Source: Candidatus Omnitrophota bacterium (GTDB lineage Bacteria; Omnitrophota; Gorgyraeia; Zapsychrales; Zapsychraceae). Taken from it: 64,000 nucleotides of DNA. Below the pieces are notes generated by a model, which had not been told where the DNA came from, made no database searches, and saw only the letters and a list, made by a program, of their open reading frames with translations. Of this stretch, positions 20,010-52,487 are shown piece after piece. Both the position numbers and the translations under genes were made by a program. Numbering within the stretch: position 1 is the stretch's first letter; each line of letters begins with the position of its first letter. The DNA lies in the NCBI GenBank assembly GCA_029261055.1, contig JAJDCA010000044.1, positions 13,867 to 77,866 of the forward strand, in the 5' to 3' direction.

Positions 20010-20010
20010 G

Positions 20011-22129: not shown

Positions 22130-22154
22130 TTAATCTCGGTACACTTAATTTCTA

Positions 22155-23270: not shown

Positions 23271-23284
23271 AATTTAATTTATTA

Positions 23285-23358
23285 GGGCATGATAAATCAT
23301 GCCCGTACAACGGTAGGGGCATGACCTGCCTGCCGGTAGGCAAGGTTCATCATGCCCG
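23285..23358. repeat. REP-like stacked palindromic element, copy 1 (GGGCATGA-TAAA-TCATGCCC + GTACAACG + GGGCATGA...TCATGCCC)
   Basis: Perfect 8-bp-arm palindrome plus a second nested palindrome. 28 bp are identical to the element at 39424. Lies across the putative ccsA start. Confidence 0.6.
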
Positions 23359-27582: not shown

Positions 27583-27715
27583 AAGGGTAACCCATTAGCA
27601 ATGCTTATTAGAACTATTAGATATAAACCGTATGGTTATTTAAAAATTTCATTAGAATAAAAATATATTAAATATTAAATATGGTTCCCAATCCAATAAA
27701 AAAAAGGGGGGCTTT

Positions 27716-28462: not shown

Positions 28463-28463
28463 A

Positions 28464-29594
28464 ATGAAAAAAATCTGGTTAGCTGTACTTTCAATCTTGA
28501 TTGTTGTCGGGTTTATTAAAATGGGACACCTGTTAAGTGTCGGTCAAATCACGACCAATGCCAATGATAAAATACCGTGGGGCCTTGATGCGGTTGTTTA
28601 TATGTTTACGGCTGGTCTAGGTGCGGCTGCATTTATCATGGCCACACTGAGCTTATTTGGTATTAATACATTTAAGCCGATCGCCAAGGTCGCCCTTATT
28701 CTTTCTATTGTTTTAGTAGGTATTGCTCCGGTTAATCTGCTTTTAGGCATGGGGCATCCAGGTAAATTTTGGATGATTTTTCTTACACCCAATTTTACCT
28801 CAATCATTGTCCTAGGCGCCTATTTATTACTTGCTTTCACAATAGTGAGTTGTCTATTTGCTTATTTCACTCTACGCCGAGATATGCCGGGAAAATCTTT
28901 ATCACCGGCGGAAATAGCAGGAGACGATAAAAAAATTAAAATTCTGGGTTTAATCGGCCTTCCGATTGCTTTATTTGTTATTGGGTATACCGGCGTATTA
29001 CTTGGGTTATCCCGAGCACGAATTCTTTGGTCAACATCGTTGATGCCGGTTATTTTCTTTGTATCATCGATCATTTCTGCCATCGCATTGCTTATCATTA
29101 TTTCAAAAATTCTTCAAACAAAATGTGGTTTTGATATCAAAGAAACTTTATTTGATCATCTTGGCAAATTAATGCTTGCCGGCATATTGTTTGACGTGCT
29201 TTTTTTGTCAGGAGAAATATTGACTGGGATTTATGGGCGATCCGGCGATCATTATGAAGCCTGGTCTGTTTTATTATTCGGTCAACATGCTTTAAACTTT
29301 TATCTTTTTCAAATTTTTATCGGGGCCATTATTCCGATTTATCTTTTGCTTAAACAGAAGACTTCGCAAAAGATGGTATTAGCGGCCGTTTGTGCTCTGA
29401 TCGGAGTTTTTGCTATGCGTTACAATGTCATCATCGGTGGACAAGTTGTCCAATCATCAGGTGGTCCTTTAGGTCAATATATTCCGAATCTTGATGAATG
29501 GTTAGTATCCATTGGACTATGGGCCGTAAGCGGGTTGTTACTTACTTTTGCAATCAATCGGCTCCCTTTAAAACCTTCCATGGGGAATAATTAG
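28464..29594 (+). CDS. NrfD/PsrC/TtrC-family polytopic quinol-interacting membrane subunit
   Basis: 376 aa with ~8-9 TM helices. Its position between the FeS and catalytic subunits matches ttrBCA gene order. Confidence 0.75.
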   Translation: MKKIWLAVLSILIVVGFIKMGHLLSVGQITTNANDKIPWGLDAVVYMFTAGLGAAAFIMATLSLFGINTFKPIAKVALILSIVLVGIAPVNLLLGMGHPGKFWMIFLTPNFTSIIVLGAYLLLAFTIVSCLFAYFTLRRDMPGKSLSPAEIAGDDKKIKILGLIGLPIALFVIGYTGVLLGLSRARILWSTSLMPVIFFVSSIISAIALLIIISKILQTKCGFDIKETLFDHLGKLMLAGILFDVLFLSGEILTGIYGRSGDHYEAWSVLLFGQHALNFYLFQIFIGAIIPIYLLLKQKTSQKMVLAAVCALIGVFAMRYNVIIGGQVVQSSGGPLGQYIPNLDEWLVSIGLWAVSGLLLTFAINRLPLKPSMGNN

Positions 29595-29606
29595 GAGAAA
29601 GCACAT

Positions 29607-32168: not shown

Positions 32169-32788
32169 TGATTCAAATGACAGACATATCCATCCAGGAA
32201 CAAGCCGGTATTTATGCTTTTTTAAAAATGGTTTTTGCCACGGAACCATCATCGGCTTTACTGGCATACCTGCAAACGCCTGCGGTCTTAGAAAGTTTTA
32301 AGGTCGCAGGCGTCTGTATTGAAAAAAAAGAACTCGATGTATCAGAATTGTCAAAATTGCAAGCAGATTACACCCAATTATTCATTGGTCCCAAAAAGCA
32401 CATTGCCCTCAATGAAGCAATTTACATCGAACAAACACCACAGTTTTGGGGAGAGGCGACTGTTCAACTTAATAAACTTATTAAATATCTTGGCCTGGAA
32501 TTAGATGAACATTGGACAAGGATGCCTGATCATATTGCTATTGAGTTTGAACTCATGCAAAAATTGTTGGAAGCAAAAATTAAAGCCGTGGATTCAAATG
32601 ATCAGTCAAGTGTTGAGCAATGTACCAAAGCGATAAACAATCTATTTAAAGATCACATTATTAAATGGGTCCCCCAAGTTTGCACCCAAGTGATTGATCG
32701 TGCTCAGACAAATACATACAAAGCTATCGGCACGTGGACAAAAATGTTTATAGAATTTTCACAAGAAATTCATAAAAATTTCACATAA
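32168..32788 (+). CDS. TorD/DmsD-family redox-enzyme maturation chaperone
   Basis: 206 aa cytoplasmic protein. TAATG overlap with the catalytic subunit. All-helical TorD-like composition. Confidence 0.65.
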   Translation: MIQMTDISIQEQAGIYAFLKMVFATEPSSALLAYLQTPAVLESFKVAGVCIEKKELDVSELSKLQADYTQLFIGPKKHIALNEAIYIEQTPQFWGEATVQLNKLIKYLGLELDEHWTRMPDHIAIEFELMQKLLEAKIKAVDSNDQSSVEQCTKAINNLFKDHIIKWVPQVCTQVIDRAQTNTYKAIGTWTKMFIEFSQEIHKNFT

Positions 32789-32837
32789 TTAAACTATACT
32801 TATCCAAAAAAAATCAACAAAATACAAAGGAGGGAAA

Positions 32838-34088
32838 ATGAATTCAAAAAAATGGCCCATATTGGGGTTATGCCTTGGGGTAGCATTATTAGTCGCTTCC
32901 TCAACATCATTTGCAGGGGAGATTGATATCTTGGTCGATAAATTAGTCGAAAAAGGAATCCTTACGCGAAGTGATGCGACTGAAATTCTATCGGAAACAC
33001 GACAAGAAGCAGCTCGCCAGGCAAAACAAGTAGCACCTTCTGACGTGCCCAAATGGGTGAATAAAATAAAACTCAAAGGGGATTTAAGGTTACGTTATGA
33101 GCATAAAGAAAAGAGAGGCGTTAATGACATTGAACGTGGAAGAGTCAGATATCGTCTTGGGATTGAATCAAAAATTGTGGATAAGGTGACTGTTGGTGCT
33201 GGATTGGCTTCCGGCAGTGATAGTAGTACAAGCGCACGTTCAACTAATCAAGACCTACAAGACGTGTTTAGTACAAAATCAATTAATTTAGATTATGCTT
33301 ATTTTGAATATGAGCCATATGAATGGATGAGTATGGTAGGGGGTAAATTCAAACGAAAGAAATATCTTTGGGCTCCAAGTGATTTACTTTGGGATGGAGA
33401 TATTAATCCTGAAGGGGTGTCCTTTCAATTTAAACATGAACTGGTGGATAATGTCCAAGGTTTTGCCAATACTGGTTTTTGGATTTTGGACGAATCAACA
33501 GGCGACACCTCCGATCCATATCTCGCGTATATTCAACCCGGGGTCAAAGCTAAATTTAGCGATTTAGGTGCGGATGCTAAAGTAGCTGTAACCTATTATG
33601 ATTTTGGTAATGTTAAAGGGGCTACGTTAGATGGCGCATTGGGAGACAACAGTACCGATAGTGGTGGAGGATTAGCTTTCAGATATAATCCTATTGCGGT
33701 AGCTGCTGAGGTAGGGATTGAAGAGCCTTTTGATTTACCTGTCCCAAGAGTTGCTGCCTTCGGTGAATTTGTTCATAACCCTGATCCAGATGATGAAAAT
33801 AATGGATGGTTACTGGGGCTTAAATTGGGCGATAAAAAAGTCAAAGATAAAAACCAATGGCAATTAAAATATATATTTGCCAGACTCGAAAAAGATGCCT
33901 TTCTTGATGTTCTTCCAGATGCTGACCGTTACAGTGGGGGAACAGATATCGTCAGTCATGAAGGTATTATACAATTCGGATTAAATAAAAATATTATGGT
34001 AGAGTTTGATTATTACCATAGCAATAGAGTTAATGCGGCATCAGCACCTGAAAATGTATTTCAAACAAGTGCTAATTTTAAATTCTAA
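32838..34088 (+). CDS. Outer-membrane beta-barrel protein (putative porin)
   Basis: Signal peptide. An N-terminal coiled segment is followed by alternating amphipathic beta-strands and a C-terminal ...ANFKF aromatic terminus. Shares an (L/I)RLRYEH motif with the ORF at 50918. Confidence 0.6.
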   Translation: MNSKKWPILGLCLGVALLVASSTSFAGEIDILVDKLVEKGILTRSDATEILSETRQEAARQAKQVAPSDVPKWVNKIKLKGDLRLRYEHKEKRGVNDIERGRVRYRLGIESKIVDKVTVGAGLASGSDSSTSARSTNQDLQDVFSTKSINLDYAYFEYEPYEWMSMVGGKFKRKKYLWAPSDLLWDGDINPEGVSFQFKHELVDNVQGFANTGFWILDESTGDTSDPYLAYIQPGVKAKFSDLGADAKVAVTYYDFGNVKGATLDGALGDNSTDSGGGLAFRYNPIAVAAEVGIEEPFDLPVPRVAAFGEFVHNPDPDDENNGWLLGLKLGDKKVKDKNQWQLKYIFARLEKDAFLDVLPDADRYSGGTDIVSHEGIIQFGLNKNIMVEFDYYHSNRVNAASAPENVFQTSANFKF

Positions 34089-34164: not shown

Positions 34165-34821
34165 ATGTTTAAAAAATTATTGGGTTCTTTGGCTTTAACC
34201 ATGGTTATTGTTCAGACATGTTGGGCTTCACCCACAGGCTTAAATAATATACCGACCGCTGATGTTGTTCCAAAGAAAGTTTTAGTCTTGCAGGCTTACA
34301 CGGAAGTAGGCGATAATAATAAACCAGATTATTTTACAGGATTTAAATATTCTCCATTAGAAAATCTGGAAGTCGGTTTAGATGGGCGTATTTTTCCAGA
34401 AGCTTCTTTGGAAGAGCAGCTTAAAGGGCAAATCAAGTACCGATTTAAATTTGGTGAACAGACCGCCGTTGCTTTTGGGGTTGCAAATTTGGGTGACCGG
34501 GCCAAATTAGGTTGGGAAGATTATTATGCTGTATTCACGCATGACTTTGGTTTTATTCGAGCTCATTTAGGCGGTACGCTGCAGCGCGATAATGAAGGAG
34601 GGTTTGCCGGACTTGATAAAACTCTTGAATTATTCGAAAAAGATTTAACTCTTAGAGCCGATATTATTGAAACAAATGATAGTCATAACATAACAAGCAG
34701 CGTCGGGTTTATCTATGATTTAGGTTATAATTTTTTATTAGAAAATTGGGTATCTTTTCCAACGCAGTCAGAAAAAGAAGATTTTTTTACCATAAAGATT
34801 GATTATGTGATAAAATTTTAA
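34165..34821 (+). CDS. Small outer-membrane beta-barrel protein
   Basis: Signal peptide (LALTMVIVQTCWA). 218 aa. Alternating hydrophobic pattern and a C-terminal ...VIKF terminus. Confidence 0.5.
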   Translation: MFKKLLGSLALTMVIVQTCWASPTGLNNIPTADVVPKKVLVLQAYTEVGDNNKPDYFTGFKYSPLENLEVGLDGRIFPEASLEEQLKGQIKYRFKFGEQTAVAFGVANLGDRAKLGWEDYYAVFTHDFGFIRAHLGGTLQRDNEGGFAGLDKTLELFEKDLTLRADIIETNDSHNITSSVGFIYDLGYNFLLENWVSFPTQSEKEDFFTIKIDYVIKF

Positions 34822-34934: not shown

Positions 34935-35894
34935 GTGAATAATGCTAATACATCATCATCCATAATTGATCCCCATGGGCGCTGCATTCATAAAATGCGC
35001 GTCCAATTGACCGATGCCTGCAATTTTCGTTGTTTTTACTGCATGCCAGCCCAAGTCAAATTCCTACCTTCCAAACAATTATTGTCTGCGACTGAAATTA
35101 TTGATATCTGTTCCGAGCTTACAAATGTAGGTATAAATGAAATGCGTGTTTCAGGTGGGGAACCAACATTACGCAAAGATTTTCGTCAAATAATTGAAGG
35201 CTTAGACGAATTAAATCTTCTCAAATTGGGCCTAACATCCAATGCATATTTTTTAGATAAAGAATTGCCCTTTTTAAAAAATACAAATTGTCAGCACATT
35301 AACATTAGTTTAGATAGCCTTAATAAACAGTCTTTTGCTCAAATAACAAAAACTAATTATTTTGATACAGTGTTCCAGACTATTTTGCAAACAAAAGCGA
35401 TGGGGTTCCACGTTAAAGTTAATGTTGTGCTATTAAAAGGTGTTAATGATGCAGAAGTTTTTGATTTTATTGAATTTTCAGCACGACATAAAATTGAGGT
35501 TAGGTTTTTAGAATTAATGAAAATAGGGCCACAAAATGCAAAGCATGAACACTTATTTATTTCCGCAAGAGAAATTATTCAAAAGATAGAAGGTTCTGAA
35601 AAATTAACGCCTCAATCAGTTAATTGTGATTCAACATCTTTTAACTTTACAACTTCCGCAGGAGCGCATATAGGTTTTATCGCTTCTGAATCCCAACCAT
35701 TCTGCCAATTTTGTTCAAGATTGCGTTTAACAGCAACCGGAATATTACGCGCATGCCTTATGTCTGAGGATGGCATAAACCTCCGTTATCGTAATAAAGC
35801 AGAATATGCCGCTATCCTCCACGATGTTGTTTCTATGAAACCCAACTACCGTATTGATCATATTGAGCAACCGATGTATCAAATCGGAGGATAA
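34935..35894 (+). CDS. moaA: GTP 3',8-cyclase (molybdenum cofactor biosynthesis protein A, radical SAM)
   Basis: CNFRCFYCMP radical-SAM motif. C-terminal Cys triad CQFCSRLRLTATGILRAC for the second 4Fe-4S cluster. Confidence 0.9.
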   Translation: MNNANTSSSIIDPHGRCIHKMRVQLTDACNFRCFYCMPAQVKFLPSKQLLSATEIIDICSELTNVGINEMRVSGGEPTLRKDFRQIIEGLDELNLLKLGLTSNAYFLDKELPFLKNTNCQHINISLDSLNKQSFAQITKTNYFDTVFQTILQTKAMGFHVKVNVVLLKGVNDAEVFDFIEFSARHKIEVRFLELMKIGPQNAKHEHLFISAREIIQKIEGSEKLTPQSVNCDSTSFNFTTSAGAHIGFIASESQPFCQFCSRLRLTATGILRACLMSEDGINLRYRNKAEYAAILHDVVSMKPNYRIDHIEQPMYQIGG

Positions 35895-35899
35895 TCAAA

Positions 35900-37033
35900 T
35901 TGCACAAACAAAAACAAAATTATACATACCACCCTTTTGAATTAGCTTTCTGCGGTTATTCCAATTCCGGAAAAACCACACTGATCACACAACTTATTAA
36001 GACTCTTTCCAAGAAATATAAAATTGGATACATCAAACACGACGTCCATAAATTTTGCATGGATCACGAAGGCAAGGATACTTATCAGGTTCGAAAGAGT
36101 GGTGCGCATACTGTTTTTATCAGTGATTCCGAACATAGTGCGTGTATTCATGGATCGAGCCAGAATTTATTCGCACATCAACCTATTTTTCTGGAATCGG
36201 ATATTGTTTTAGTAGAAGGATATAAATCATCCGATATACCAAAAATTGTGTTGCTGGATAAGGATAAAACCATCTTAGAAGATTTAAAGAATCAGAAATT
36301 TACGAATATTGTGGCCGTTGTTGGGCCGATGGATGTGGAGGATGATATTTCAGAAAAATACCCTTATTTCCATCGCGATGATATTGAGGGAATAAAGCAA
36401 TGTGTTCTCAGACATATATCTGATAAAATTAAAGAAACACCTCTTTACGGTCTTGTTTTAGCGGGAGGGCGCAGTACACGCATGAAAAAAGATAAATCTT
36501 TACTTAATTATCATGGCAAACCTCAAATTCAACATGCAAGCGAATTTCTTACAAAATTCTGCACCAAAGTCTTTATTTCAAATAGAGACGAGCAATCAGA
36601 AATCGCAAATCACAGTAAATCCCCTCAAATTCACGATACATTTCTAAATATCGGCCCTTTAGGCGGAATCCTTTCAGCCATGACCACGCATCCAAACGCC
36701 GCCTGGCTTGTATTGGCCTGTGATTTACCTTTTATCACGGATCAGACAATCGAATATTTGATCAAAAATCGACATCCATTTAAGTTTGGCTCAGCCTATA
36801 AAAGCGCACAAAATGACCTTCCCGAACCCTTATGCGCTATTTATGAACCAAAATTCAGACCACGCCTGTTCCAATTTCTAGGCCAAGGCCTTCAATGCCC
36901 TCGAAAAATCCTCATAAACTCCGATATTGCCCTTTTTGACCTTCCAGAAAAATCCGCCTTGAATAATGTTAATCATCCTGAAGAATATGTTGAAACCAAA
37001 AATATTCTATCAACAAACCGCGCAAAATTTTAG
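35900..37033 (+). CDS. mobBA: Fused MobB (GTP-binding) - MobA (molybdenum cofactor guanylyltransferase)
   Basis: N-terminal Walker A (GYSNSGKTTLI, MobB-like). C-terminal LAGGRSTRM and LACDLPF motifs of MobA. Confidence 0.8.
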   Translation: MHKQKQNYTYHPFELAFCGYSNSGKTTLITQLIKTLSKKYKIGYIKHDVHKFCMDHEGKDTYQVRKSGAHTVFISDSEHSACIHGSSQNLFAHQPIFLESDIVLVEGYKSSDIPKIVLLDKDKTILEDLKNQKFTNIVAVVGPMDVEDDISEKYPYFHRDDIEGIKQCVLRHISDKIKETPLYGLVLAGGRSTRMKKDKSLLNYHGKPQIQHASEFLTKFCTKVFISNRDEQSEIANHSKSPQIHDTFLNIGPLGGILSAMTTHPNAAWLVLACDLPFITDQTIEYLIKNRHPFKFGSAYKSAQNDLPEPLCAIYEPKFRPRLFQFLGQGLQCPRKILINSDIALFDLPEKSALNNVNHPEEYVETKNILSTNRAKF

Positions 37034-37077: not shown

Positions 37078-38952
37078 ATGCCGCTCAAAGTCCGCATTCC
37101 GGATGACAATTATTGGAAAGAACAAATTAAATGTCAATATGCCTGCCCGGTACACACCGATGCACGTGGATACGTGCGTGCGGTTGCAGACGGAGATTTT
37201 GACAAGGCTTATCTCATTGCACGTGCACCAAATCCGTTAGCCTCGATTTGCGGGCGGATTTGCGGGGCACCGTGTGAAGCGGCTTGTCGACGTGGCAGCG
37301 TGGATAAAAGTATTTCGATTCGTGCGCTTAAACGTTCCGCTGTTGACCATCATCAATACCAAGACAACCAGCCGCTTAATCTCATCCAAAAAATAAAAAC
37401 ATCCTTACAAAATCGTGATTGTTCCGACCTTGAAGATTTAGGTGGGTTATTCCAGAATTTTGATAATCAAAAAATGCCTAAAACAGAGGGGCAAAGCATT
37501 GGCATTATCGGCTCCGGCCCGGCGGGATTAGCTGCCGCGCATGATTTGGCCCTGATGGGATTTTCTGTCATCATTTATGAAATGGAATCGGTCCCGGCAG
37601 GGATGTTGTATTTAGGGGTGCCGGCCTACCGTCTTCCGCGTGAACTCATCGAGGCGGAGGTAGATGTCATTAAAGCTTTAGGTGTTGAAATCAAAACGAA
37701 TTGTACTATTGGTAAAGATATTACTTTTGATGCTTTACGCAAAAAACATCAAGCGGTTATTATTGCGGTCGGATGCAAGAAGTCTCGTTCAATTCCGTTG
37801 CCAGGAATTGACGCCGAAGGGGTGATTGGTGGTGTCGAATTTTTAAGAGATGTTTCTCTGAATTTACCGCATACCATCGGGAATAAAGTCGTCGTGATCG
37901 GTGGTGGTAACGTGGCCTATGATGTGGCCCGTTCGGCTCTTCGACAACAACAAATGGATGTGGCCGCCACGGCCTTGCATGAACGCGAAGGGATTAAGGT
38001 TACTTTGTCTTGTTTAGAACGGGAAGATGAAATGTTGGCGGATGAAATTGAAATCTTAGAAGGGGAAGAAGAAGGGGTCACTCGACAAAATGGGTATGGT
38101 CCTCAGGAAGTTTTAACAAAAAATAATAAAGTAACCGGTGTGGTATTCCATAAAGTGATTTCTATTTTTGATGAAAATAAACAATTTAATCCAAAATATG
38201 ATCCCAATCAATCCATCACAATTGAAGCGGACACAGTTTTATTGTCCGTGGGGCAACGTTCTGATATTTCTTTTGTAGATCCCAAAAAAGACGGCGTAAC
38301 GATTAATGATAGGGGGATTATGACGTGTGACCCTGACACTCTGGAAACGACGGCGTCGGGTGTTTTTCTTGCGGGTGATTTGGCGCATGGACCGCGACTC
38401 ATGATTGATGCGATTGCCAGCGGTAAAAAAGTAGCCCGTTCAATTTATCAAAAATTAATAGGCACAGCCTTTTCGTTTGACAGCAAACAAACGCATGTTC
38501 CTATTGAAAATTATTCGCGCGAGGCCGGTTACGAAAAAATTCGCAGACAAGTCTTGCAATCCGTAGAAGTTACCGATAGAATTTATAATCATACAACGGT
38601 GGTTGAAAAAGGTTTCACCTGTGGCCAGGCCAAGGTGGAAGGGGCCCGTTGTTTTGATTGCAGTGTCAACACGATCTTTGACGGTAATAAATGTATTCTT
38701 TGCGGTGGGTGTGTGGATGTGTGTCCTGAATTATGCCTTAAACTTGTTCCGATCGATGAACTCGATGGCGATAAAACATTTTCCGAATTAACAAATATTG
38801 TTAAAGAACAAAAATCCACTGATGAGTTAACTGCTATTATTAAAGATGAAGAAAAATGTATTCGGTGTTCCTTATGTGCCATTCGTTGTCCGGTTGATGC
38901 CATTACGATGGAACGATTTTCGTTTACAACAGCTACGTGTCAAAAAAAATAA
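37078..38952 (+). CDS. GltD-like NAD(P)H/FAD oxidoreductase with N- and C-terminal iron-sulfur domains
   Basis: 624 aa. N-terminal Cys clusters (CQYACPVHTDARG, CGRICGAPCEAAC) as in the glutamate synthase small subunit. Two Rossmann motifs (IGIIGSGPAGLAAA, VVVIGGGNVAYD). C-terminal 2x[4Fe-4S] (CILCGGCVDVCP, CIRCSLCAIRCP). Confidence 0.8.
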   Translation: MPLKVRIPDDNYWKEQIKCQYACPVHTDARGYVRAVADGDFDKAYLIARAPNPLASICGRICGAPCEAACRRGSVDKSISIRALKRSAVDHHQYQDNQPLNLIQKIKTSLQNRDCSDLEDLGGLFQNFDNQKMPKTEGQSIGIIGSGPAGLAAAHDLALMGFSVIIYEMESVPAGMLYLGVPAYRLPRELIEAEVDVIKALGVEIKTNCTIGKDITFDALRKKHQAVIIAVGCKKSRSIPLPGIDAEGVIGGVEFLRDVSLNLPHTIGNKVVVIGGGNVAYDVARSALRQQQMDVAATALHEREGIKVTLSCLEREDEMLADEIEILEGEEEGVTRQNGYGPQEVLTKNNKVTGVVFHKVISIFDENKQFNPKYDPNQSITIEADTVLLSVGQRSDISFVDPKKDGVTINDRGIMTCDPDTLETTASGVFLAGDLAHGPRLMIDAIASGKKVARSIYQKLIGTAFSFDSKQTHVPIENYSREAGYEKIRRQVLQSVEVTDRIYNHTTVVEKGFTCGQAKVEGARCFDCSVNTIFDGNKCILCGGCVDVCPELCLKLVPIDELDGDKTFSELTNIVKEQKSTDELTAIIKDEEKCIRCSLCAIRCPVDAITMERFSFTTATCQKK

Positions 38953-38955
38953 TTT

Positions 38956-39417
38956 ATGTCAAATTCTAACAAAAAAATAACCCGGAGAGATTTCTTAGGG
39001 TTATCTGCTTTGTGGACATGCCTTGCCGCATGGTTTTTCACATTTCTCGGTCTTCTTAAATTCCCCAAACCTGCATTATTACCTGATGTATCTAATGTCT
39101 TTAAAATTGGCCGTCCTGACGATATTCCAATAGATAGCGAAAAAATTTATGATGATAAAAAAGTCCTTATTGTACGCGACAATGAAGGGGTTTCTGCTGT
39201 TTCGTTGATTTGTACGCATTTAGGATGTATTGTTTCGAAAAGCAAAGATGGATTTTCATGTCCCTGTCATGGATCAAAATTTGATACCAATGGGGATGTG
39301 ATTGCAGGACCAGCCCCTCGGGGATTAAGCTGGCTTGAAGTAAGTCAACTTCCCAGTGGAAAATTAGTTGTGAATGCCGGGAAACGTGTGCCGGAGGGGA
39401 CGAAGTTTGTAGTTTAA
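38956..39417 (+). CDS. petA: Rieske [2Fe-2S] protein, TAT-targeted and membrane-anchored
   Basis: RRDFLGLSALW twin-arginine signal/TM. CTHLGC ... CPCHGS Rieske boxes. Confidence 0.85.
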   Translation: MSNSNKKITRRDFLGLSALWTCLAAWFFTFLGLLKFPKPALLPDVSNVFKIGRPDDIPIDSEKIYDDKKVLIVRDNEGVSAVSLICTHLGCIVSKSKDGFSCPCHGSKFDTNGDVIAGPAPRGLSWLEVSQLPSGKLVVNAGKRVPEGTKFVV

Positions 39418-39526: not shown

Positions 39527-41065
39527 ATGCCTATCAAAAAATTTTACCAAAATCTTAAACAATTACCTCAAACGTTTATCGAATCCATTATTCGCAATGA
39601 TAAACCTACGTCTGATCGAGCGCGTAGCCAGGCGGTGTTTGGAAACATGTTCCTTCATATTTTCAGCACACGTATTCATCGTTATTCGTTAAAAAAGACA
39701 TTCACCTTTGGATTAGGTATCATATCTGCTTTTTCCTTTATAATCCTTATTGTCACAGGCATTCTTTTAATGATTTATTACAAGCCATCAGTCGAATTGG
39801 CCTATGATTCTATCAAAGACATTCAATACATTGTCCCTGGTGGTCGATTTATTCGTAATGTGCATCGCTGTGCTACCAATGTTATGATCGTGGCTGTTTT
39901 TCTTCACATGGCAAGAGTCTTTTATACGGCGGCTTACAAACGCACGCGTTCTTTTAATTGGGTTTTAGGCATTGGACTTCTTGCCTTAACGCTGATGATG
40001 AGTTTTACAGGTTATTTGCTTCCCTGGGATCAGTTAGCCTATTGGGCAGTTACGATTGCGACGAATATTGCGGCTTCAACCAGTGAATTAACGGATGCAT
40101 TAAATATTACGGCTTATTTTGATCCAGGACATGTCATTAAGGTTCTTTTGTTAGGATCAGAAAATATTGGGCAGGATGCCCTAACGCGTTTTTATTGGCT
40201 GCATTGTATTATTCTTCCAGTGGCCTTGGTGATGGTTTTGGCCGTGCATGTATGGCGTGTGCGCAAAGATGGAGGATTGGCCAGGCCGGATACACTTACA
40301 GAAGAAGATTTGAAAGGTACGCCGAAAGATCCGCTTTCTGATAAGGTTTTTAATCATGCGCCGCAGAAAACATACGGTTTAATGTGCCTGGTTAAAGGGA
40401 AGTCCAATGCTGTCAGCAGAGGACCGGAACAAACCGTTTCGAGCTGGCCTCATATGATGATTCGTTTAGTAGGGTTGTTTATGCTGACATTTGCACTATG
40501 TTGTATTTATGCCTATTTTGTTGAAGCTCCGCTTAAAGAAATGGCTAATCCCGCCGTACCAGAAAATCCTGCCAAGGCACCATGGTATTTTCTAGGTTTG
40601 CAAGAATTAGTTTCTTATTCTGCTTTTATGGGAGGCGTCGGCATTCCAACCTTAGCCCTTTTAGGATTAGCTTTAATTCCGTATTTGGACAGAGAAAATC
40701 AAGAAATTGGGCGTTGGTTTGATGATAAAAAAGGGAAGAAAGTCGCCATACAATCTTTCATTTATGCCTCCGTTGTTGTGATCGGTATGCTTATTTTTAC
40801 GGTGAGTTTTGGATGGTTACGCAATTGGTTTCCTGCCATTCCTCAGCTGGCGATTACATTTATTAATCCGGGAACCATATTAGTTGGATTTTATGTCGGG
40901 TGGTCTTTATATTGTATGGCCAAATATAAATCAACACGCATGTCGGCGATTGCTTTATTTACATGTTTTCTTGTTGGCTTTTTAGTTTTAACGTATTTTG
41001 CAACCTTTCACCGTGGACCAAATTGGGATTTTTATTGGCTAAAGAGCCAGTGGCCTATTCATTAA
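39527..41065 (+). CDS. petB: Cytochrome b (fused cytochrome b6 / subunit IV-like, long form)
   Basis: 512 aa with ~9 TM helices. The His pairs on helices (HRCATNVMIVAVFLHMARV ... HCIILPVALVMVLAVHVWRV) have the spacing of the bL/bH haem ligands. Follows the Rieske gene. Confidence 0.85.
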   Translation: MPIKKFYQNLKQLPQTFIESIIRNDKPTSDRARSQAVFGNMFLHIFSTRIHRYSLKKTFTFGLGIISAFSFIILIVTGILLMIYYKPSVELAYDSIKDIQYIVPGGRFIRNVHRCATNVMIVAVFLHMARVFYTAAYKRTRSFNWVLGIGLLALTLMMSFTGYLLPWDQLAYWAVTIATNIAASTSELTDALNITAYFDPGHVIKVLLLGSENIGQDALTRFYWLHCIILPVALVMVLAVHVWRVRKDGGLARPDTLTEEDLKGTPKDPLSDKVFNHAPQKTYGLMCLVKGKSNAVSRGPEQTVSSWPHMMIRLVGLFMLTFALCCIYAYFVEAPLKEMANPAVPENPAKAPWYFLGLQELVSYSAFMGGVGIPTLALLGLALIPYLDRENQEIGRWFDDKKGKKVAIQSFIYASVVVIGMLIFTVSFGWLRNWFPAIPQLAITFINPGTILVGFYVGWSLYCMAKYKSTRMSAIALFTCFLVGFLVLTYFATFHRGPNWDFYWLKSQWPIH

Positions 41066-46455: not shown

Positions 46456-46490
46456 AGACCAAGGATTAATTTAAAATCTTTGGTCTTTTG
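46456..46490 (+). terminator. Candidate rho-independent terminator after the NapA-like gene
   Basis: AGACCAAGG - 13-nt loop - CTTTGGTCT gives a 9-bp stem with one G-U pair, followed by TTTT. Confidence 0.5.
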
Positions 46491-46583: not shown

Positions 46584-47171
46584 ATGATCAGAAGAAATTT
46601 TATTAAACGCACCTTAATATTTTTTGCCGCGAGTACTCTTTATTCACTCATGGGAAACCATGTGGTCTTTGGAAAAACCAGAAAAATATTCAAGAAATAT
46701 TTACGCCCCCCCGGAGCTCTTCCTGAAAAAGATTTTTTAGCGACGTGTATTAATTGTCATCGTTGCGGACAAGCCTGCCCCAGCGATTGTATTCAGTACA
46801 TTAATGATCCATTAAATCCTTCAATGCACGACACGCCCTACATTAATCCACGACAGAAGGCTTGTATTCTTTGCATGAAATGCACACAAGCCTGCCCGTC
46901 AGGATCTTTACAACGTATTGATAATGATGATTCCGATTCTATTCACAAACACGTAAAAATGGGAATTGCGGTTGTGGATACAAATATTTGCAATTCTTAC
47001 AATGGATATTCCTGCGGCGTATGTATCCGGGCTTGTCCTTTAGGAGAAGAAACTTTAAAAACAGGCAACTGGGAACGTCCAATCGTTAACCCTGATAACT
47101 GTGTTGGCTGCGGGCTTTGTGAACAAAGCTGTATTCACTATCCACAGGCGATAAGGGTAGAACCGATATGA
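46584..47171 (+). CDS. napG: NapG/MauM-like periplasmic 4x[4Fe-4S] ferredoxin, TAT-exported
   Basis: MIRRNFIKRTLIFFAAS TAT-like signal. Four ferredoxin boxes (CINCHRCGQACP, CILCMKCTQACP, CGVCIRACP, CVGCGLCEQSC). I set the start at the internal ATG rather than track ORF 46536. Confidence 0.75.
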   Translation: MIRRNFIKRTLIFFAASTLYSLMGNHVVFGKTRKIFKKYLRPPGALPEKDFLATCINCHRCGQACPSDCIQYINDPLNPSMHDTPYINPRQKACILCMKCTQACPSGSLQRIDNDDSDSIHKHVKMGIAVVDTNICNSYNGYSCGVCIRACPLGEETLKTGNWERPIVNPDNCVGCGLCEQSCIHYPQAIRVEPI

Positions 47172-48598
47172 TCACAAAATTTCGACGACTAATTCAATGG
47201 AGTATTTTCTTAGGCATCATCCTCATTACTGTCTTAAATTATTACGAAAACCAAAAAGTAAAATATGGAGGAGAGTTGGTTATTCAAGAATCACCCATTT
47301 TACGGACTGTAGATAAAATTTTTGGGCAGCTTGAAAACCGCACAAAAATTGTCACTTTTTTACAAGGGGATGTTTGGTCGTTTCAAATAGGCTCTATTAA
47401 AATTACGGATCCATTGGCCTTTATTGGCAATATCAGTCGCACCAAAGCTATCTATTGGCCACTTTTTTTAGCCGCTTTAATCCCGATCATTCTGACAATT
47501 CTTTTAGGAAAAGTGTTTTGTAGTTGGATTTGTCCGATGGGACTTTTGTTTGAATTAAATGCAAAATTACGCACCGTGTTACAAAAATTCGCTTTACCGT
47601 TAGGTAATTTTACATTGCCTCCTTGGTGCAAATATATTGTATTAGGCGGTGGAATTTTTACAGGGCTTGTTTGGGGTGCCCATTATTTCTTTCTGATTTA
47701 TCCCCCCAAAATTATTTCCGGTGAAATTTATTTTAGTGTCATTAAATCTTCATTAGGATATGGCGTTGCATTTCTTTTTCTGCTTTTAGCGATTGAATTA
47801 TTTCTTGCCCCACGATTTTGGTGTCGTTCGCTTTGTCCCGGAGGGGCATTGTACACCTTATTGAGTCAATTTCGCTTTTTACGCATTAAAAACGATTTAA
47901 ATCGCTGCACAAACTGCGGCATTTGCGATACCTTGTGCCCATATGACATCACCCCGTCCAAAGGAAAATTATCATTGGAATGTGATCATTGTTCTCTATG
48001 TATTACTAAATGCCCAGTCAAAAGCCTTTCTTTTAAGATGCCCAACCGTACACACACCCCCGGGGTGTGTATATGGTTAATCTTAACCATGTGTCTTTTT
48101 TTCAATGCGACAACGGCATCAGCGCATCATATCCGCGGATTACCACATTATGGATATTCTGAAAATTATCCGCAGACGCCAACGTATGAAGAAATTCGTG
48201 TGGTTGATGATTGGAAAGTTAATTTTTCATATATAAAAATTTTTGAAACCAAAAATTGTGATTTAGCTGTTTATTTAAAAAATACAAAAACCGGGAAACC
48301 ATATGCTGGAAAAATTCGGTTTAAAGTTTTTGGCGAAAGGGAAGACCCTGAAGCTTCGCCTTATTATGATACGCATTTTGATCCAACCAATACGTTCCGC
48401 GTAGGATGGGCTTATGAATTGGATGGTGTTTACATTGTGAGAGCCCAATTTTTTGATGAAGGCAAAGAGTATATTGAAGATTTTCGTATGCAAATAGGCA
48501 AAGTTGGATTTAATCCGTTATGGTGGGCTATTCCAGGAATATTTGTTTTAATTTTAATCATATTAATTGCTGTGAAACAACGGAGGAGCTCTAAATGA
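47168..48598 (+). CDS. napH: NapH/MauN/CcoG(RdxA)-family membrane polyferredoxin with C-terminal periplasmic beta-domain and terminal TM
   Basis: TM helices with CSWICPMG and CRSLCPGG (CxxCP) motifs. Two ferredoxin boxes (CTNCGICDTLCP, CDHCSLCITKCP). ~170-aa C-terminal extension ending in a TM helix, as in CcoG/FixG. ATGA overlap with napG. Confidence 0.75.
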   Translation: MITKFRRLIQWSIFLGIILITVLNYYENQKVKYGGELVIQESPILRTVDKIFGQLENRTKIVTFLQGDVWSFQIGSIKITDPLAFIGNISRTKAIYWPLFLAALIPIILTILLGKVFCSWICPMGLLFELNAKLRTVLQKFALPLGNFTLPPWCKYIVLGGGIFTGLVWGAHYFFLIYPPKIISGEIYFSVIKSSLGYGVAFLFLLLAIELFLAPRFWCRSLCPGGALYTLLSQFRFLRIKNDLNRCTNCGICDTLCPYDITPSKGKLSLECDHCSLCITKCPVKSLSFKMPNRTHTPGVCIWLILTMCLFFNATTASAHHIRGLPHYGYSENYPQTPTYEEIRVVDDWKVNFSYIKIFETKNCDLAVYLKNTKTGKPYAGKIRFKVFGEREDPEASPYYDTHFDPTNTFRVGWAYELDGVYIVRAQFFDEGKEYIEDFRMQIGKVGFNPLWWAIPGIFVLILIILIAVKQRRSSK

Positions 48599-50121
48599 TT
48601 ATGTCGGGTTTACCAAAGTGGTTATTTTTTACAAGTATTGCGCTTGTGTTGATGATTTCATTTATCCTGGTAGAGTGGTTAAACCGATCCAATCGTAAGG
48701 CCAAGCCCTATCCTAAGTTTAACATTCTTTCCATTCCCGGCGTCAAGGCTTGTGTGAAGGCCCCATTTTTTAAATTCCTTTTTCAATTTCCTGTATTTTT
48801 AATTTTCTGCCTTATTATTTATGCCGGTATTTACGGACATGCCGTGATTAATATTGCCCCTGTATTGACTTGGACCATATGGTGGGCAGGACTCATTTTT
48901 CTAATTTTATTTTTTGGTAAGGCCTGGTGTTTTGTGTGTCCCTGGGATTTTGTCGCGACTCTTTTTCAATATTTAAAACCATTCGGTGTCAGCAAAAAAC
49001 CTTTTACATTGGGATATAAATGGCCAAGGTGGCTGAAGAATATTTATTTGGCTATTGGATTATTCGTTCTCTTAACATGGTTTGAGCTAGGATATCATGT
49101 GACGGCCTCACCACGCTTTACAGCAATATTAGCGATTGTCATTGTTTTTCTCTCCGTCATTCCGGCTTTAATTTTCGAAAAACGTTCTTTTTGTAAATAC
49201 GGGTGCCTCATTGGACGCATTTCAGGATTGTATGCCATGTTTTCACCTGTGGAAGTGCGCAGTGCAGACTTGGATGTATGTACAAAATGCAAGACAAAAG
49301 ATTGTTATACCGGAAATGATAAAGGTAATGCTTGCCCAACATCACTTGTGATTCCTCAAATCAAAGAAAATACCTATTGTATTTTATGTACAGAATGTGT
49401 CAAAAGTTGTCCGCACGATAATGTCGCCATTAATGTACGCCCCTTTGCAACGGATTTGAAAAATTTTACAAAAGTAAAAAGTGATGAAGCCATACTGGCC
49501 ATTATTCTTTTGGCCTTAACATCCTTTCATGGACTCACCATGACCCCACTGTGGGATTCACCGACAGGTAATTCAATAATCCATTCTATACGTTCCATCA
49601 CAGGATTTGGACCATTAGGGGCCTTTACATTAGGCATGTTTTGTGTGAATGCAGCGTTAGGTTTATTTTATTATCTAATCGCCTTAATTACACAACGATT
49701 TGTCGGAGAGCCGCAGGTTTCAACTAAAAAAGTTTTTTTGTATTACGCCTATTCTTTGCTACCCATTGCTTTGTTTTATCACTTAGCGCATAATGCCATG
49801 CATGTATTCATGGAGGGGCAAGTTGTCGTCCCCTTAATTTCGGATCCATTAGGGCAGGGTAATAATTTCTTTGGCACGGCGCAATGGTATTTGGCACCGC
49901 TGTTATCACACAGCAGCATTTGGTATCTGCAGGTGGGACTTGTCCTCATCGGACATATTTTTGGTATTATTATCGCGCATCATGTTTCACGAAAACTTTA
50001 TTCTGATCGCAGGGCCGCCATACGATCATTAGTTCCTATGCTCATCGGCATGATTTTTTACTCATTTCTTTCCTTATGGATTATGCATTTGGATATGAAT
50101 ATGCGGAGTAGTTTGATGTGA
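48595..50121 (+). CDS. Second NapH/MauN-family membrane polyferredoxin with extra C-terminal His-rich TM helices
   Basis: CFVCPWD and CKYGCLIG CxxCP-type motifs in TM context. Ferredoxin box CILCTECVKSCP. The C-terminal ~200 aa have 4 additional TM helices carrying conserved His (HLAHNAMH, GHIFGIIIAHH). Confidence 0.7.
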   Translation: MIMSGLPKWLFFTSIALVLMISFILVEWLNRSNRKAKPYPKFNILSIPGVKACVKAPFFKFLFQFPVFLIFCLIIYAGIYGHAVINIAPVLTWTIWWAGLIFLILFFGKAWCFVCPWDFVATLFQYLKPFGVSKKPFTLGYKWPRWLKNIYLAIGLFVLLTWFELGYHVTASPRFTAILAIVIVFLSVIPALIFEKRSFCKYGCLIGRISGLYAMFSPVEVRSADLDVCTKCKTKDCYTGNDKGNACPTSLVIPQIKENTYCILCTECVKSCPHDNVAINVRPFATDLKNFTKVKSDEAILAIILLALTSFHGLTMTPLWDSPTGNSIIHSIRSITGFGPLGAFTLGMFCVNAALGLFYYLIALITQRFVGEPQVSTKKVFLYYAYSLLPIALFYHLAHNAMHVFMEGQVVVPLISDPLGQGNNFFGTAQWYLAPLLSHSSIWYLQVGLVLIGHIFGIIIAHHVSRKLYSDRRAAIRSLVPMLIGMIFYSFLSLWIMHLDMNMRSSLM

Positions 50122-50705
50122 CCAAAGAAAACCTTTCCCGACGAGATTTTTTTAAAAAAGGATTAAAGTCGTTGGCTCAAGGCGCCAAGGAAACCGCCAC
50201 GATTTTATATTCATCGGAAGAACCCATTACGCCCAGCCGAACTCTTGTACGCCCTCCCGGAGCATTACCTGAAAAAGAATTTCTTGAAAAATGCACACGA
50301 TGTAATGAATGTGTGAAAGTCTGTCCTGAAGAATCCATTATGAAATTTGTCGGCGAAGAATCGCCCCTGCATTTAACACCCATGCTTTCCGTGCGTAAAT
50401 CACCGTGTGTGCTTTGTGAAGATTTTCCGTGTATCAAAGTATGCGAACCCGAAGCCTTAGTGATGCCGGCTGCACGTGAAGAAGTAAAAATGGGCATAGC
50501 GGTGATTAATGAAAAACTTTGTTATGCCTGGCAAGGGGGCCAAGATTGTGATTACTGTATTAAAGAATGCCCCATAGGAGAAAAAGCTATTTATTTTGAT
50601 GAAGTACGCCGGCCGCATGTATCGTCGGAACATTGTACTGGCTGCGGATGCTGTGAATATATTTGTCCCAGTCGTCAACCGGCGATTGTTGTCGGCACGC
50701 GTTAA
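50118..50705 (+). CDS. Second NapG/MauM-like periplasmic 4x[4Fe-4S] ferredoxin, TAT-exported
   Basis: SRRDFFKKGLKSLA TAT signal. Boxes CTRCNECVKVCP, CVLCEDFPCIKVC, CDYCIKECP, CTGCGCCEYICP. Confidence 0.75.
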   Translation: MTKENLSRRDFFKKGLKSLAQGAKETATILYSSEEPITPSRTLVRPPGALPEKEFLEKCTRCNECVKVCPEESIMKFVGEESPLHLTPMLSVRKSPCVLCEDFPCIKVCEPEALVMPAAREEVKMGIAVINEKLCYAWQGGQDCDYCIKECPIGEKAIYFDEVRRPHVSSEHCTGCGCCEYICPSRQPAIVVGTR

Positions 50706-50917: not shown

Positions 50918-52147
50918 ATGAAACGTTTAATAGCTTTACTGCTTTTAACATTAATTTTTTGCATAAGTGAAGGGTATGCAGCGGAGTCTCTTAAAGAGGT
51001 TTTTACAGAAGGAACGCCTTATATTGATATTCGATTGCGCTATGAACATGTCGAACAAGATGGTTTGATAAATGCAAATTCAAAAACAGCGCGAACACGT
51101 TTAGGTTTTAAATCCGATAAGTTTTATAATTTTGTTGGTGTTATTGAAGGAGAAGGTGTTTTTTATTTAGGAAATGATGATTATAACGACACGGTTAATG
51201 GTCGTACTGATCATGCCACGGTCGCTGATCCTGAGAATGTACAAGTCAATCAAGCTTATGGAGAATATACAGGAATTCCTGATACAGCGATCAAAGCAGG
51301 TCGGCAGGTTATTACGCTGGATGGCCACCGTTTTATTGGCCATGTTGGATGGCGACAAAATAATCAGGTCTTTGATGCCGCGATGATCACGAACTCGTCT
51401 ATTCCAGACACAACAGCAAAATATGGTTATATCTATAATGTAAACCGTATTTTTGGTGAACAATCCACGGGAGGCGACTGGGGTTCCAAAAGTCATTTCT
51501 ACCATATTGCCAACACAAGTCTACCCTTTGCTAAAGTTGCCGCGCATGGATACATTCTTGATTTTGGGAGTGATTCCGCCGCAAATTCTAACAAAACATT
51601 TGCTGTTAATTTTTCAGGAAAAAAAGAATTAAATGATGATTTTACTTTTAAATATTATGGCGAATATGCCCATCAAACTGATAATGCAGATAACACAACT
51701 GATTATGATGCGAGTTATTACCATATAGCTCCAGCCATCGCCTGGAAAAGTCTAACAGCAACAGTAGGTTTTGAAGTCTTAGGCAGTGATGATGGTAAAT
51801 TTGCTTTTAGGACACCTTTAGCGACTCTGCATAAATGGAATGGTTGGTCAGATAAATTTTTAACAACACCGGCTAACGGGCTTCAAGATTTTTATGTTGA
51901 TTTAACCTATAAAGTAAAAGATTTAGATGGAAATTTAGAATTTCTTAATGGATTGTTAGCTAAGGTTCAATACCATGATTTTGATGCAGATAATGGAGGT
52001 TTGGATCATGGAAAAGAATTCGGCGTATTTCTTAAAAAACCCATTAATAAGAACCTTGTTGTCAGCACAAAATATTCAAATTATATGGCTGATAAGACAT
52101 CAACTGATACACAAAAAATAACTTTTGATATTGGTATTAAATTTTAA
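50918..52147 (+). CDS. Outer-membrane beta-barrel protein (putative porin), paralogue of the ORF at 32838
   Basis: Signal peptide (LLLLTLIFCISEGYAAE). IRLRYEH motif near the N-terminus shared with ORF 32838. C-terminal ...GIKF aromatic terminus. Confidence 0.6.
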   Translation: MKRLIALLLLTLIFCISEGYAAESLKEVFTEGTPYIDIRLRYEHVEQDGLINANSKTARTRLGFKSDKFYNFVGVIEGEGVFYLGNDDYNDTVNGRTDHATVADPENVQVNQAYGEYTGIPDTAIKAGRQVITLDGHRFIGHVGWRQNNQVFDAAMITNSSIPDTTAKYGYIYNVNRIFGEQSTGGDWGSKSHFYHIANTSLPFAKVAAHGYILDFGSDSAANSNKTFAVNFSGKKELNDDFTFKYYGEYAHQTDNADNTTDYDASYYHIAPAIAWKSLTATVGFEVLGSDDGKFAFRTPLATLHKWNGWSDKFLTTPANGLQDFYVDLTYKVKDLDGNLEFLNGLLAKVQYHDFDADNGGLDHGKEFGVFLKKPINKNLVVSTKYSNYMADKTSTDTQKITFDIGIKF

Positions 52148-52238: not shown

Positions 52239-52487
52239 ATGTCTAAATTTGTTGTGCGAATACTATATTACGCTATTTTAAAAGAAAAACGGGGATTATC
52301 GGAAGAAAGCATTAACACTCAAGCAGTTACTGCGTTAGATCTTTATCAAGAACTCAAAGATCGACATTCGTTTGATTTATCCTCCAAATCATTAAAAGTA
52401 GCGATCAATGATGAATTTACCTCTTGGGATACGCGTTTACAGGCAGAGGATACTGTCATTTTCATCCCGCCGGTAGCTGGAGGCTAG
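52239..52487 (+). CDS. moaD: MoaD/ThiS-family sulfur-carrier protein (molybdopterin synthase small subunit)
   Basis: 82 aa ending in ...PPVAGG (C-terminal Gly-Gly), the hallmark of MoaD/ThiS. Confidence 0.65.
   Translation: MSKFVVRILYYAILKEKRGLSEESINTQAVTALDLYQELKDRHSFDLSSKSLKVAINDEFTSWDTRLQAEDTVIFIPPVAGG

Follow-up and report, generated by a model that had tools for sequence, protein, structure and literature searches.

The window analysed here, a stretch of 64,000 nucleotides from a Candidatus Omnitrophota genome (contig JAJDCA010000044.1, positions 13,867 to 77,866), contains a block of four genes, G1, H1, H2 and G2, which encode two pairs of NapG/NapH-type iron-sulfur (Fe-S) proteins. 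Both membrane proteins of the block, H1 and H2, end in an additional domain, here termed H1C and H2C, and these domains represent two conserved families without Pfam, NCBIfam or PDB counterparts. The interpretation preferred in this study, with a probability of about 0.5, is that H1C and H2C form a periplasmic metal site, for which copper is the favoured ion and iron a possible one, redox-wired through the NapG/NapH-type Fe-S chain. Such a unit would be analogous to CcoG and FtrD, being a member of neither family. This interpretation is based on the Met/His-rich tails, Cys knuckles and YHS/TRASH domains of H2 homologues, the histidine arm of H1C, and the copper and iron genes neighbouring relatives of H2C. 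A metal-handling function had been suspected in a preliminary description of this DNA, made from its letters alone, and gains weight from these data and from matches of the H1C fold to copper proteins.

Anatomy of the four-gene block

Adjacent genes of the block overlap by 4 bp at each of the three junctions, the overlap reading ATGA at 47168 and 48595 and GTGA at the third, because the start codon of G2 is GTG. The coordinates, order and overlaps of the preliminary description therefore stand, except that it gave ATGA for the third junction also. A TTG codon at 46536 is an alternative start of G1. In scans with hidden Markov models (HMMs) the best family of G1 and G2, both of which carry twin-arginine translocation (Tat) motifs (Table 1), was NapG, with 134 and 137 bits against a cut-off of 269 (NF007012), while that of H1 and H2 was NapH/MauN: H1 scored 117 and 111 bits and H2 41 and 39 bits, against cut-offs of 213 (TIGR02163) and 234 (NF007013). 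The earlier NapG/NapH-type assignment is thus upheld at the level of the top-scoring family, and since all four proteins fall under the curated cut-offs they are NapG/NapH-like proteins rather than equivalogs; their architecture and motifs place them in the NapH/NapG superfamily. The pairwise identity is 33% between G1 and G2 and 25% between the cores of H1 and H2, which makes them old paralogues and rules out a recent duplication. What had been taken for a mirrored duplication is ancient paralogy, and the G-H-H-G order is restricted to the lineage of the window; in other lineages the genes run G-(G)-H1-H1C-(G)-H2-(G).

The H1 core has the hallmarks of NapH, namely four transmembrane helices, two CX3CP motifs (C118/C122 and C219/C223) and two canonical CxxCxxCxxxC boxes facing the cytoplasm, and these motifs and boxes are invariant among 56 homologues. 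In the AlphaFold2 model of H1 (predicted local distance difference test, pLDDT, 85) the NapH-like core is followed by a transmembrane helix (298-312), a beta-sandwich (339-443) and a terminal transmembrane helix (451-475), and the positive-inside rule places the sandwich on the periplasmic side, in agreement with the beta-rich periplasmic domain and terminal helix noted previously. The His-rich arm between the first of these helices and the sandwich (319-335) has a pLDDT below 50, as is expected of a ligand-dependent segment.

When the window's H1C was aligned with sequences of the domain from 66 related loci, an N-terminal motif emerged, HHxxG[LI]PHYxYxxNYPQxP, in which HH, G, Y, YP and P are each present in at least 90% of sequences. 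The motif begins directly after a signal-peptide-like segment with a small last residue, mostly AxA, in fused forms as well as in separate ones; at the junction in the window NATTASA is immediately followed by HH. From this position of HH after AxA we infer cleavage by signal peptidase, which would expose an N-terminal histidine on H1C; in the window protein signal peptidase I probably cuts between residues 319 and 320. A mature N-terminal histidine is the hallmark of histidine-brace copper sites, and the sequence of H1C would provide one, given the predicted cleavage.

The extension of H1 had been regarded as an elaboration of NapH. It is instead the fusion of an independent periplasmic protein, being a separate open reading frame (ORF) in 26 of 40 complete loci and fused to H1 in the other 14. 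A profile search found 251 stand-alone H1C proteins of about 190-230 amino acids, which are annotated as hypothetical and have no Pfam domain. Isolated H1C matched no Pfam or NCBIfam model at E<=10, and neither single-sequence nor profile searches gave a PDB match. By fold, the best matches of the sandwich among solved structures were CrdA of Helicobacter pylori (E 7e-4, TM-score 0.68-0.73), the soluble domain of PmoD (TM-score 0.60) and FetP.

H2 consists of an extra N-terminal transmembrane helix, a NapH-like core and H2C. Its core carries variants of the NapH motifs, CX2CP (C112/C115) and CX3C (C200/C204, CX3C-L), along with one atypical and one canonical Fe-S box, and all motif cysteines are invariant among homologues. 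The AlphaFold2 model (pLDDT 92, predicted TM-score 0.91) has ten transmembrane helices, five of which belong to H2C, one more than the preliminary description counted. The loops contain 27 lysine and arginine residues on the cytoplasmic side and 2 on the periplasmic side; by the positive-inside rule both termini and the histidine cluster of H2C are therefore periplasmic, and the Fe-S domain is cytoplasmic. A conserved MxM ahead of the first helix and an MxMR near the C-terminus are both periplasmic.

Within H2C the histidines H312, H396, H399 and H403 are invariant among H2 homologues and H454 is conserved in at least 90%. These residues confirm the earlier remark that the extension is rich in conserved histidine, although the histidines of the quoted 'AHH' string are not among the conserved ones. 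Further invariant or nearly invariant positions are found in Y395-H396-x-A-H399-N400-x-x-H403-x-x-x-E407, S416-D417-P418-x-G, F426-G427-T428, W443, Q446, G453-H454 and the C-terminal M501-x-M503-R504. H312, H396, H399, N400, H403, E407, the S416-D417-P418-x-G...FGT loop, W443 and Q446 face the periplasm, while H454 is located mid-membrane. The resulting pattern, in which one helix carries HxxHxxxH close to the periplasmic face and two others have one histidine each, would be more in keeping with a metal site than with two b haems. Isolated H2C had no Pfam or NCBIfam match at E<=10, H2 and H2C had no PDB match by single-sequence or profile search, and a Foldseek search of the PDB with the H2 model produced no meaningful match (best E-value 0.077).

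Homologues of H2 and the H2C superfamily

More than 1239 full-length homologues of H2 were identified, with relatives present in at least 385 species-representative genomes, from phyla that include Planctomycetota, Omnitrophota, Verrucomicrobiota/Kiritimatiellia/Lentisphaerae, Zixibacteria, Latescibacterota, Poribacteria, Calditrichota, Myxococcota, Gemmatimonadota, Binatia, Nitrospinae and Alphaproteobacteria. The N-terminal periplasmic tails were classified in the 120 best homologues. A signal peptide with one to three CxxCGMxxCxMxC knuckles was present in 24 of them, 23 had His/Met-rich tails such as MDHSxMxH and MNESIHEHHMHQHHM, ten had multihaem domains, and others were Met-rich. Met/His motifs of this type are typical of Cu(I)/Cu(II) capture, as in Ctr1, CusF and PcoC. 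Several H2 homologues, including that of the cultured Deferrisoma camini, carry YHS/TRASH domains; YHS is a probable copper-sensor module (PMC4626032). Orphan H2 genes, for which no conserved neighbours were found, encode N-terminal multihaem or Cys-knuckle domains.

The His-rich extension, which the preliminary description proposed to seek as an independent domain, is also found outside H2: a profile search of 1.84 billion cluster representatives identified an H2C superfamily of 2860 clusters at E <= 1e-3. It includes a large Cys-poor branch of proteins of about 460-530 amino acids, in which H2C is combined with a different N-terminal membrane domain; comparison of H2C with members from cultured organisms by hhalign gave probabilities of 99.4% and 98.7%, and Pfam and NCBIfam scans of these relatives found no match. 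The core retained across the superfamily comprises H399, H454, the SDP loop and position 312, which is Asp in the Cys-poor branch. In 51 of 53 members of this branch H[GA]FGxxYxLPxP forms the predicted mature N-terminus after AxA, so that an N-terminal-histidine arm and H2C are again found in combination, here within a single chain and in the window shared out between H1C and H2.

Genes for copper and iron acquisition repeatedly adjoin members of the Cys-poor branch. In Mycobacterium dioxanotrophicus PH-06 and Mycolicibacterium chubuense NBB4 (WP_014805753.1 in the latter) the member is plasmid-borne, follows GAF and sigC genes and adjoins genes of a copper membrane monooxygenase; in M. tuberculosis SigC prevents copper starvation (PMC7924339). 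In Sulfitobacter it is divergent from the gene of a PCuAC copper chaperone, in Haloferax and Halolamina it adjoins P-type heavy-metal ATPases, and in four other haloarchaea it adjoins P19/Iron_transport-type and/or Dyp-type genes, resembling EfeUOB/Ftr-like iron uptake. The branch, whose members are all annotated as hypothetical proteins, looks like an undescribed membrane protein of metal acquisition, and the superfamily as a whole, with members even on the copper monooxygenase plasmids of hydrocarbon-degrading mycobacteria, is a candidate for a missing component of metal uptake.

Cys-poor members were also found inside nicotinate-catabolism clusters encoding molybdenum hydroxylases, on plasmids of Neorhizobium (L086 6662-9031) and Sulfitobacter (L098 248-6104); in Neorhizobium a ferredoxin-NADP reductase gene follows. 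The superfamily is thereby associated with molybdoenzymes in a second setting.

Taken as a metal redox or acquisition unit, the block would work as follows. In each G/H module a Tat-exported periplasmic ferredoxin with four clusters would be docked on a membrane polyferredoxin, so that the two modules would connect the membrane and its cytoplasmic side to the periplasm. Cleaved H1C would be a membrane-anchored periplasmic beta-sandwich with His-His at its start, and the five-helix H2C would present its cluster of His, Asp and Met residues towards the periplasm. The putative metal site would be linked to the quinone pool or the cytoplasm through the NapH-type Cys motifs and Fe-S clusters, and to the periplasmic redox chain through the NapG-like proteins. 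Attached to a Nap-like respiratory complex, the unit would reduce, oxidise or acquire a metal ion, with electrons conceivably flowing in either direction.

The respiratory cluster and its surroundings

In order to define the genomic setting of the block, proteins of the window were searched against the ORFs of 80 loci with H2 relatives. The common order is Rieske protein, cytochrome b, multihaem cytochrome c, NapA-like enzyme, G, (G), H1, H1C, (G), H2, (G), and this cluster is kept across at least 10 phyla, mostly uncultured; the cultured Deferrisoma camini has the same arrangement as the window, with its cluster at about 3,291,381-3,312,916 of JAFN01000001.1. Among the 51 loci whose sequence extends 6.5 kb or more upstream of H2, to which linkage counts were restricted, 43 have the NapA-like gene upstream of H2 and 40 have it together with H1 and H1C. 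Moreover, H1, H1C and H2 are fused into a single chain in two proteins (P0250, 1085 amino acids; P0258, 1206 amino acids), and these natural triple fusions argue that the parts work as one physical unit. No description of the cluster, H1C or H2C was found in the searchable literature.

The NapA-like enzyme of the window scores 350 bits against a NapA cut-off of 904, with about 200 residues unaligned, and belongs to a divergent clade. It has a Tat signal and retains the Arg of GQP...R as well as the Cys-Met at the molybdenum (Mo) ligand (NARMCMTSAV, as compared with NARHCMASAV in Escherichia coli). This active-site signature of Nap/Nas enzymes bears out its earlier description as NapA-like. The terminator-like hairpin between this gene and G1 (Table 1) may be an attenuator that lowers the dosage of the four downstream Fe-S genes relative to the reductase.

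Rieske/cytochrome b, a NapA-like reductase and NapGH-type proteins are thus genetically hard-wired together in at least 10 mostly uncultured phyla. Some H1 homologues were named 'ferredoxin-type protein NapH' by the Joint Genome Institute (JGI), and NapA is the best family of the catalytic subunit; metagenome surveys will therefore probably treat the genes as ordinary napAGH, and so could give a wrong picture of what they do and of how far these lineages are able to reduce nitrate.

A more specific version of the metal-site proposal, which we consider quite unlikely, is that H1C/H2C constitute a periplasmic metal oxidoreductase hard-wired to the nitrate-reductase-like complex, and perhaps the anaerobic equivalent of metal transport that depends on an oxidase. 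In one form of this proposal Fe(II) or Cu(I) would be the electron donor and nitrate the acceptor, with the NapG/NapH-type Fe-S chain in between; in the other, electrons from respiration would serve to reduce Cu(II) so that it can be taken up. If true, this would be a widespread and unrecognised enzymatic link between nitrate respiration and iron/copper redox cycling, and the complex would be a candidate enzyme for nitrate-dependent oxidation of Fe(II) or for the anaerobic oxidation of Cu(I).

The GltD-like flavoprotein, whose gene lies directly upstream of the Rieske gene, has an extra 2x[4Fe-4S] domain. A gene of this kind also occupies L082 1-951, and Deferrisoma camini shows the same arrangement. 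It is reminiscent of NAD(P)-oxidoreductase subunits that have been proposed for the Rieske/cytochrome b complexes of anammox, and may indicate that quinol drives the reduction of NAD(P), the Nap-like enzyme forming the high-potential arm.

A second molybdoenzyme cluster is located at 26674-34088 (Table 1). Molybdenum cofactor (Moco) genes surround both Mo clusters (25420-26625, 34935-37033 and 52239-52487) and encode MoeA, MoaA, a MobB-MobA fusion and MoaD/ThiS, and the 218-amino-acid product of an ORF at 34165-34821, between the porin and MoaA genes, has no Pfam or NCBIfam match. Each Mo cluster ends with its own porin, of different families (50918-52147 and 32838-34088), and a porin is also present in two related loci (L001 and L035), which suggests that the cluster-end porins provide dedicated entry of substrates across the outer membrane. 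Further upstream, at 19014-25216, lie genes for HemE, a HemY-like amine oxidase and System II cytochrome c biogenesis (ResB-like, 22155-23270; CcsA-like, 23267-25216). These haem and cytochrome c biogenesis genes fit a region dedicated to periplasmic respiratory enzymes.

Table 1. Positions of the genes, domains and sequence elements discussed, in the window and, in the last four lines, in related loci (aa, amino acids)
Feature	Position	Strand	Basis or remark
Divergent LysR regulator	26674-27582	-	Second Mo cluster
PsrB-like four-cluster ferredoxin	27716-28462		Second Mo cluster
NrfD/PsrC-like membrane subunit	28464-29594		Second Mo cluster
Phs/Psr-like catalytic subunit	29607-32168		Second Mo cluster; PhsA model 321 bits, cut-off 694
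TorD/NarJ-like chaperone	32168-32788		Second Mo cluster
Porin_5 porin	32838-34088		Second Mo cluster
GltD-like NAD(P)-binding Fe-S flavoprotein	37078-38952	+	HMM
Rieske protein	38956-39417	+	HMM
Cytochrome b	39527-41065	+	HMM
Multihaem cytochrome c, 858 aa	41169-43745	+	HMM
NapA-like Tat-exported Mo enzyme, 888 aa	43755-46421	+	HMM, alignment
Terminator-like hairpin, 12-bp stem and T-rich tail	46456..46486	+	Sequence; in the 162-bp gap between NapA-like gene and G1
G1, Tat-exported NapG-like ferredoxin, four [4Fe-4S] motifs	46584..47171	+	NapG model 134 bits (cut-off 269); Tat motif RRNFIK
H1, NapH-like membrane polyferredoxin with extension, 476 aa	47168-48598	+	ORF, HMM, AlphaFold2
H1 core (residues 1-297), NapH-like polyferredoxin	47168..48058	+	HMM, AlphaFold2, topology
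Signal-peptide-like transmembrane helix inside H1, ending ASA	48059..48124	+	AxA retained in fused and stand-alone homologues
H1C, periplasmic domain: HH motif, beta-sandwich, C-terminal transmembrane anchor	48125..48595	+	Alignment, AlphaFold2
H2, divergent NapH-like polyferredoxin with extension, 508 aa	48595-50121	+	ORF, HMM, AlphaFold2
H2 core (residues 1-285), N-terminal periplasmic MxM, extra first transmembrane helix	48595..49449	+	HMM, alignment, AlphaFold2
H2C (residues 286-508), five-helix transmembrane domain	49450..50118	+	Alignment, AlphaFold2, hhalign
G2, second Tat-exported NapG-like ferredoxin, 195 aa, four cluster motifs	50118-50705	+	GTG start; Tat motif SRRDFF
Opr/alginate-export-like outer-membrane porin	50918-52147	+	HMM
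MoaD/ThiS	52239-52487	+	HMM
Cys-poor branch member	L087 5965-7380		Annotated 'hypothetical protein'
Cys-poor branch member	L096 5980-7341		Annotated 'hypothetical protein'
Cys-poor branch member	L098 4695-6104		Annotated 'hypothetical protein'
Cys-poor branch member	L088 5629-7038		Annotated 'hypothetical protein'

Alternative explanations and comparison with known systems

Several observations weigh against a metal site. The cluster encodes no copper enzyme, and none recurs among 75 neighbouring or downstream ORFs of related loci, where the only recurrent neighbours are Moco-biosynthesis genes and porins; the purpose of a metal module in this cluster is left without explanation, which is the main weakness of the proposal. 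The fold matches of H1C are borderline (E 1e-3 to 1e-2) and intermixed with generic Ig/FN3 domains, the N-terminal tail of the window's own H2 is minimal, consisting only of MIMSG, and H396, H403, E407 and the C-terminal MxM are confined to the H2 branch of the superfamily. About a third of the Cys-poor contexts examined were uninformative. In addition, canonical NapGH is generally taken to be a quinol dehydrogenase, which has no need of a metal site.

The last point leads to the strongest alternative, which appears somewhat unlikely: pure electron transfer, in which no metal is handled and two NapGH-type quinol dehydrogenases feed the NapA-like enzyme in parallel with Rieske/cytochrome b. Two quinol-oxidising entry points, as considered in the preliminary description, would result, with H2C binding quinol or releasing protons and H1C serving to dock periplasmic partners. 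This explanation agrees with NapG and NapH as the best families, with the presence of genes for Tat-exported partners and with the tight linkage to the NapA-like gene; the orphan H2 proteins that carry multihaem cytochrome domains resemble quinol:cytochrome c reductases complete in themselves, and the conserved His/Asp/Gln cluster at the periplasmic membrane face also suits a quinol-oxidation site. A complete quinol oxidase is, however, already present in the cluster in the form of Rieske/cytochrome b, and NapGH, which is the proposed quinol dehydrogenase in Epsilonproteobacteria, is in doubt in this role where Qcr feeds Nap (PMC6195509). Moreover, pure electron transfer does not account for the Met/His-rich tails, Cys knuckles and YHS/TRASH fusions of H2, for the invariant N-terminal His arm of H1C, or for the H2C relatives that stand beside Cu/Fe acquisition genes with no respiratory reductase nearby.

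It is very doubtful that H2C is a b-type cytochrome domain with one or two haems carrying electrons from the cytoplasmic Fe-S domain to periplasmic acceptors, an idea that the preliminary description had raised. H2C does have five conserved histidines within transmembrane helices, H454 lies mid-membrane beside a conserved glycine, and a transmembrane route is needed between the Fe-S domain on the cytoplasmic side and its periplasmic partners, G2 or the multihaem domains of fused forms. In di-haem bundles, however, pairs of histidines are about 13 residues apart on two helices, whereas in H2C a single helix carries H396, H399 and H403 at one depth with intervals of 3 and 4 residues, as in a metal ladder. 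Only H399 and H454 persist throughout the superfamily, H312 being replaced by Asp in the Cys-poor branch, and PDB searches with H2 and H2C revealed no likeness in fold or sequence to solved cytochrome b, NarI, cytochrome b561 or FRD-type proteins, a result that still allows for a single haem.

That the extensions are an artefact or incidental (a frameshift, a mis-assembly or non-functional tails), as might be thought because H1C is a separate ORF in most other genomes, is vanishingly improbable: the fused form of H1 recurs in independent assemblies at 58-61% identity (P0122-P0126) and in remote lineages, among them that of Deferrisoma camini, whose genome comes from an isolate, which rejects a frameshift, H2C is full-length in every H2 homologue examined, and both domains have strongly conserved motifs, confident AlphaFold2 models and homologues in many genomes.

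The proposed metal site of H1C and H2C may next be compared with systems that combine similar parts. Among the closest are the NapG/NapH proteins of E. coli, Wolinella succinogenes and Campylobacter jejuni, which likewise pair a Tat-exported ferredoxin with four clusters and a membrane CX3CP protein with two cytoplasmic [4Fe-4S] boxes, and whose genes adjoin a NapA-type enzyme and co-occur with a Rieske/cytochrome b complex. The window differs from them in that its proteins score under the family cut-offs, form two diverged pairs and have extra domains on both H proteins; H2, in particular, has CX2CP and CX3C variants and an extra N-terminal transmembrane helix. Its cluster also lacks NapB, NapC, NapD, NapF and NapL, and its NapA-like enzyme belongs to a divergent clade. 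In Epsilonproteobacteria Nap respiration depends on Rieske/cytochrome bc, and the role of the essential NapGH has been called unclear (PMC6195509); the elaborated NapH versions described here offer testable handles on this role where a bc complex supplies the electrons.

NosR and NosG/NosH are likewise NapH-family membrane Fe-S proteins that serve a periplasmic reductase, and for clade II N2O reductase NosG/NosH act together with Rieske/cytochrome bc (Hein et al. 2017, as cited in PMC6195509). The NosR model NF046105 gave 26.8 bits against a cut-off of 1000 with no FMN_bind Pfam match, which rejects NosR membership, and HMM scans of the window found no nosZ or nosDFYL genes.

PmoD and CrdA, the best structural matches of the H1C sandwich, match it with E-values of 7e-4 to 5e-3, share 11-12% identity with it and have different ligand sets, H1C being without conserved Cys or Met; PmoD has a C-terminal transmembrane helix. 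An analogy in architecture is offered by the copper-uptake proteins CopC/YcnI together with CopD (YcnJ/YcnI in Bacillus subtilis). YcnI has a C-terminal transmembrane anchor and a mature N-terminal histidine, and CopD is a His-rich domain with multiple transmembrane helices, so that a beta-sandwich of the H1C kind and a membrane domain of the H2C kind would be combined in a similar manner. Membership of H1C and H2C in CopC, CopD or DUF1775 was rejected by the absence of an HMM match at E<=10, and, unlike those proteins, the window domains are joined to Fe-S proteins.

CcoG is reportedly a cupric reductase for cbb3 oxidase assembly, as is said to have been found by Marckmann and colleagues in 2019. 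H1 had been described as closer to CcoG/FixG/RdxA than to NapH. By sequence it is not, since NapH/MauN is its top family, while CcoG had no NCBIfam match, FixG_C none at E<=10, and Fer4_18 gave 22.1 bits against 27. The resemblance is one of architecture only, both fused H1 (by its AlphaFold2 model and topology) and CcoG having a polyferredoxin, a transmembrane helix and a periplasmic beta-sandwich, and of the proposed job, Fe-S-driven redox chemistry on copper. H1C differs in its own N-terminal His motif and its C-terminal anchor, and no cbb3 oxidase or cco assembly genes were found in the window cluster or in the 75 downstream ORFs of related loci. CcoG/FixG/RdxA proteins are mentioned in a passage of PMC8475189.

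Finally, the FtrABCD/FtrAPBCD systems of iron uptake combine the membrane polyferredoxin FtrD with periplasmic metal proteins for redox-coupled metal handling (PMC7415376, PMC11966278), FtrD itself being a membrane-bound component of a metal-uptake system (PMC7415376). The window contains no HMM match to an FTR1 permease, P19 or cupredoxin, and H2C has no REXXE, so that an FTR1-linked FtrD can be rejected; the window module is tied to a nitrate-reductase-like cluster and not to a Fur-type iron-uptake operon. P19-type neighbours are found only with distant H2C relatives, those of haloarchaea, and FetP is among the fold matches of H1C. FtrA belongs to the P19/FetP family and FtrB is a cupredoxin, and the association of a polyferredoxin with small periplasmic beta-sandwich metal proteins is what these systems and the proposed H1C/H2C unit would have in common.

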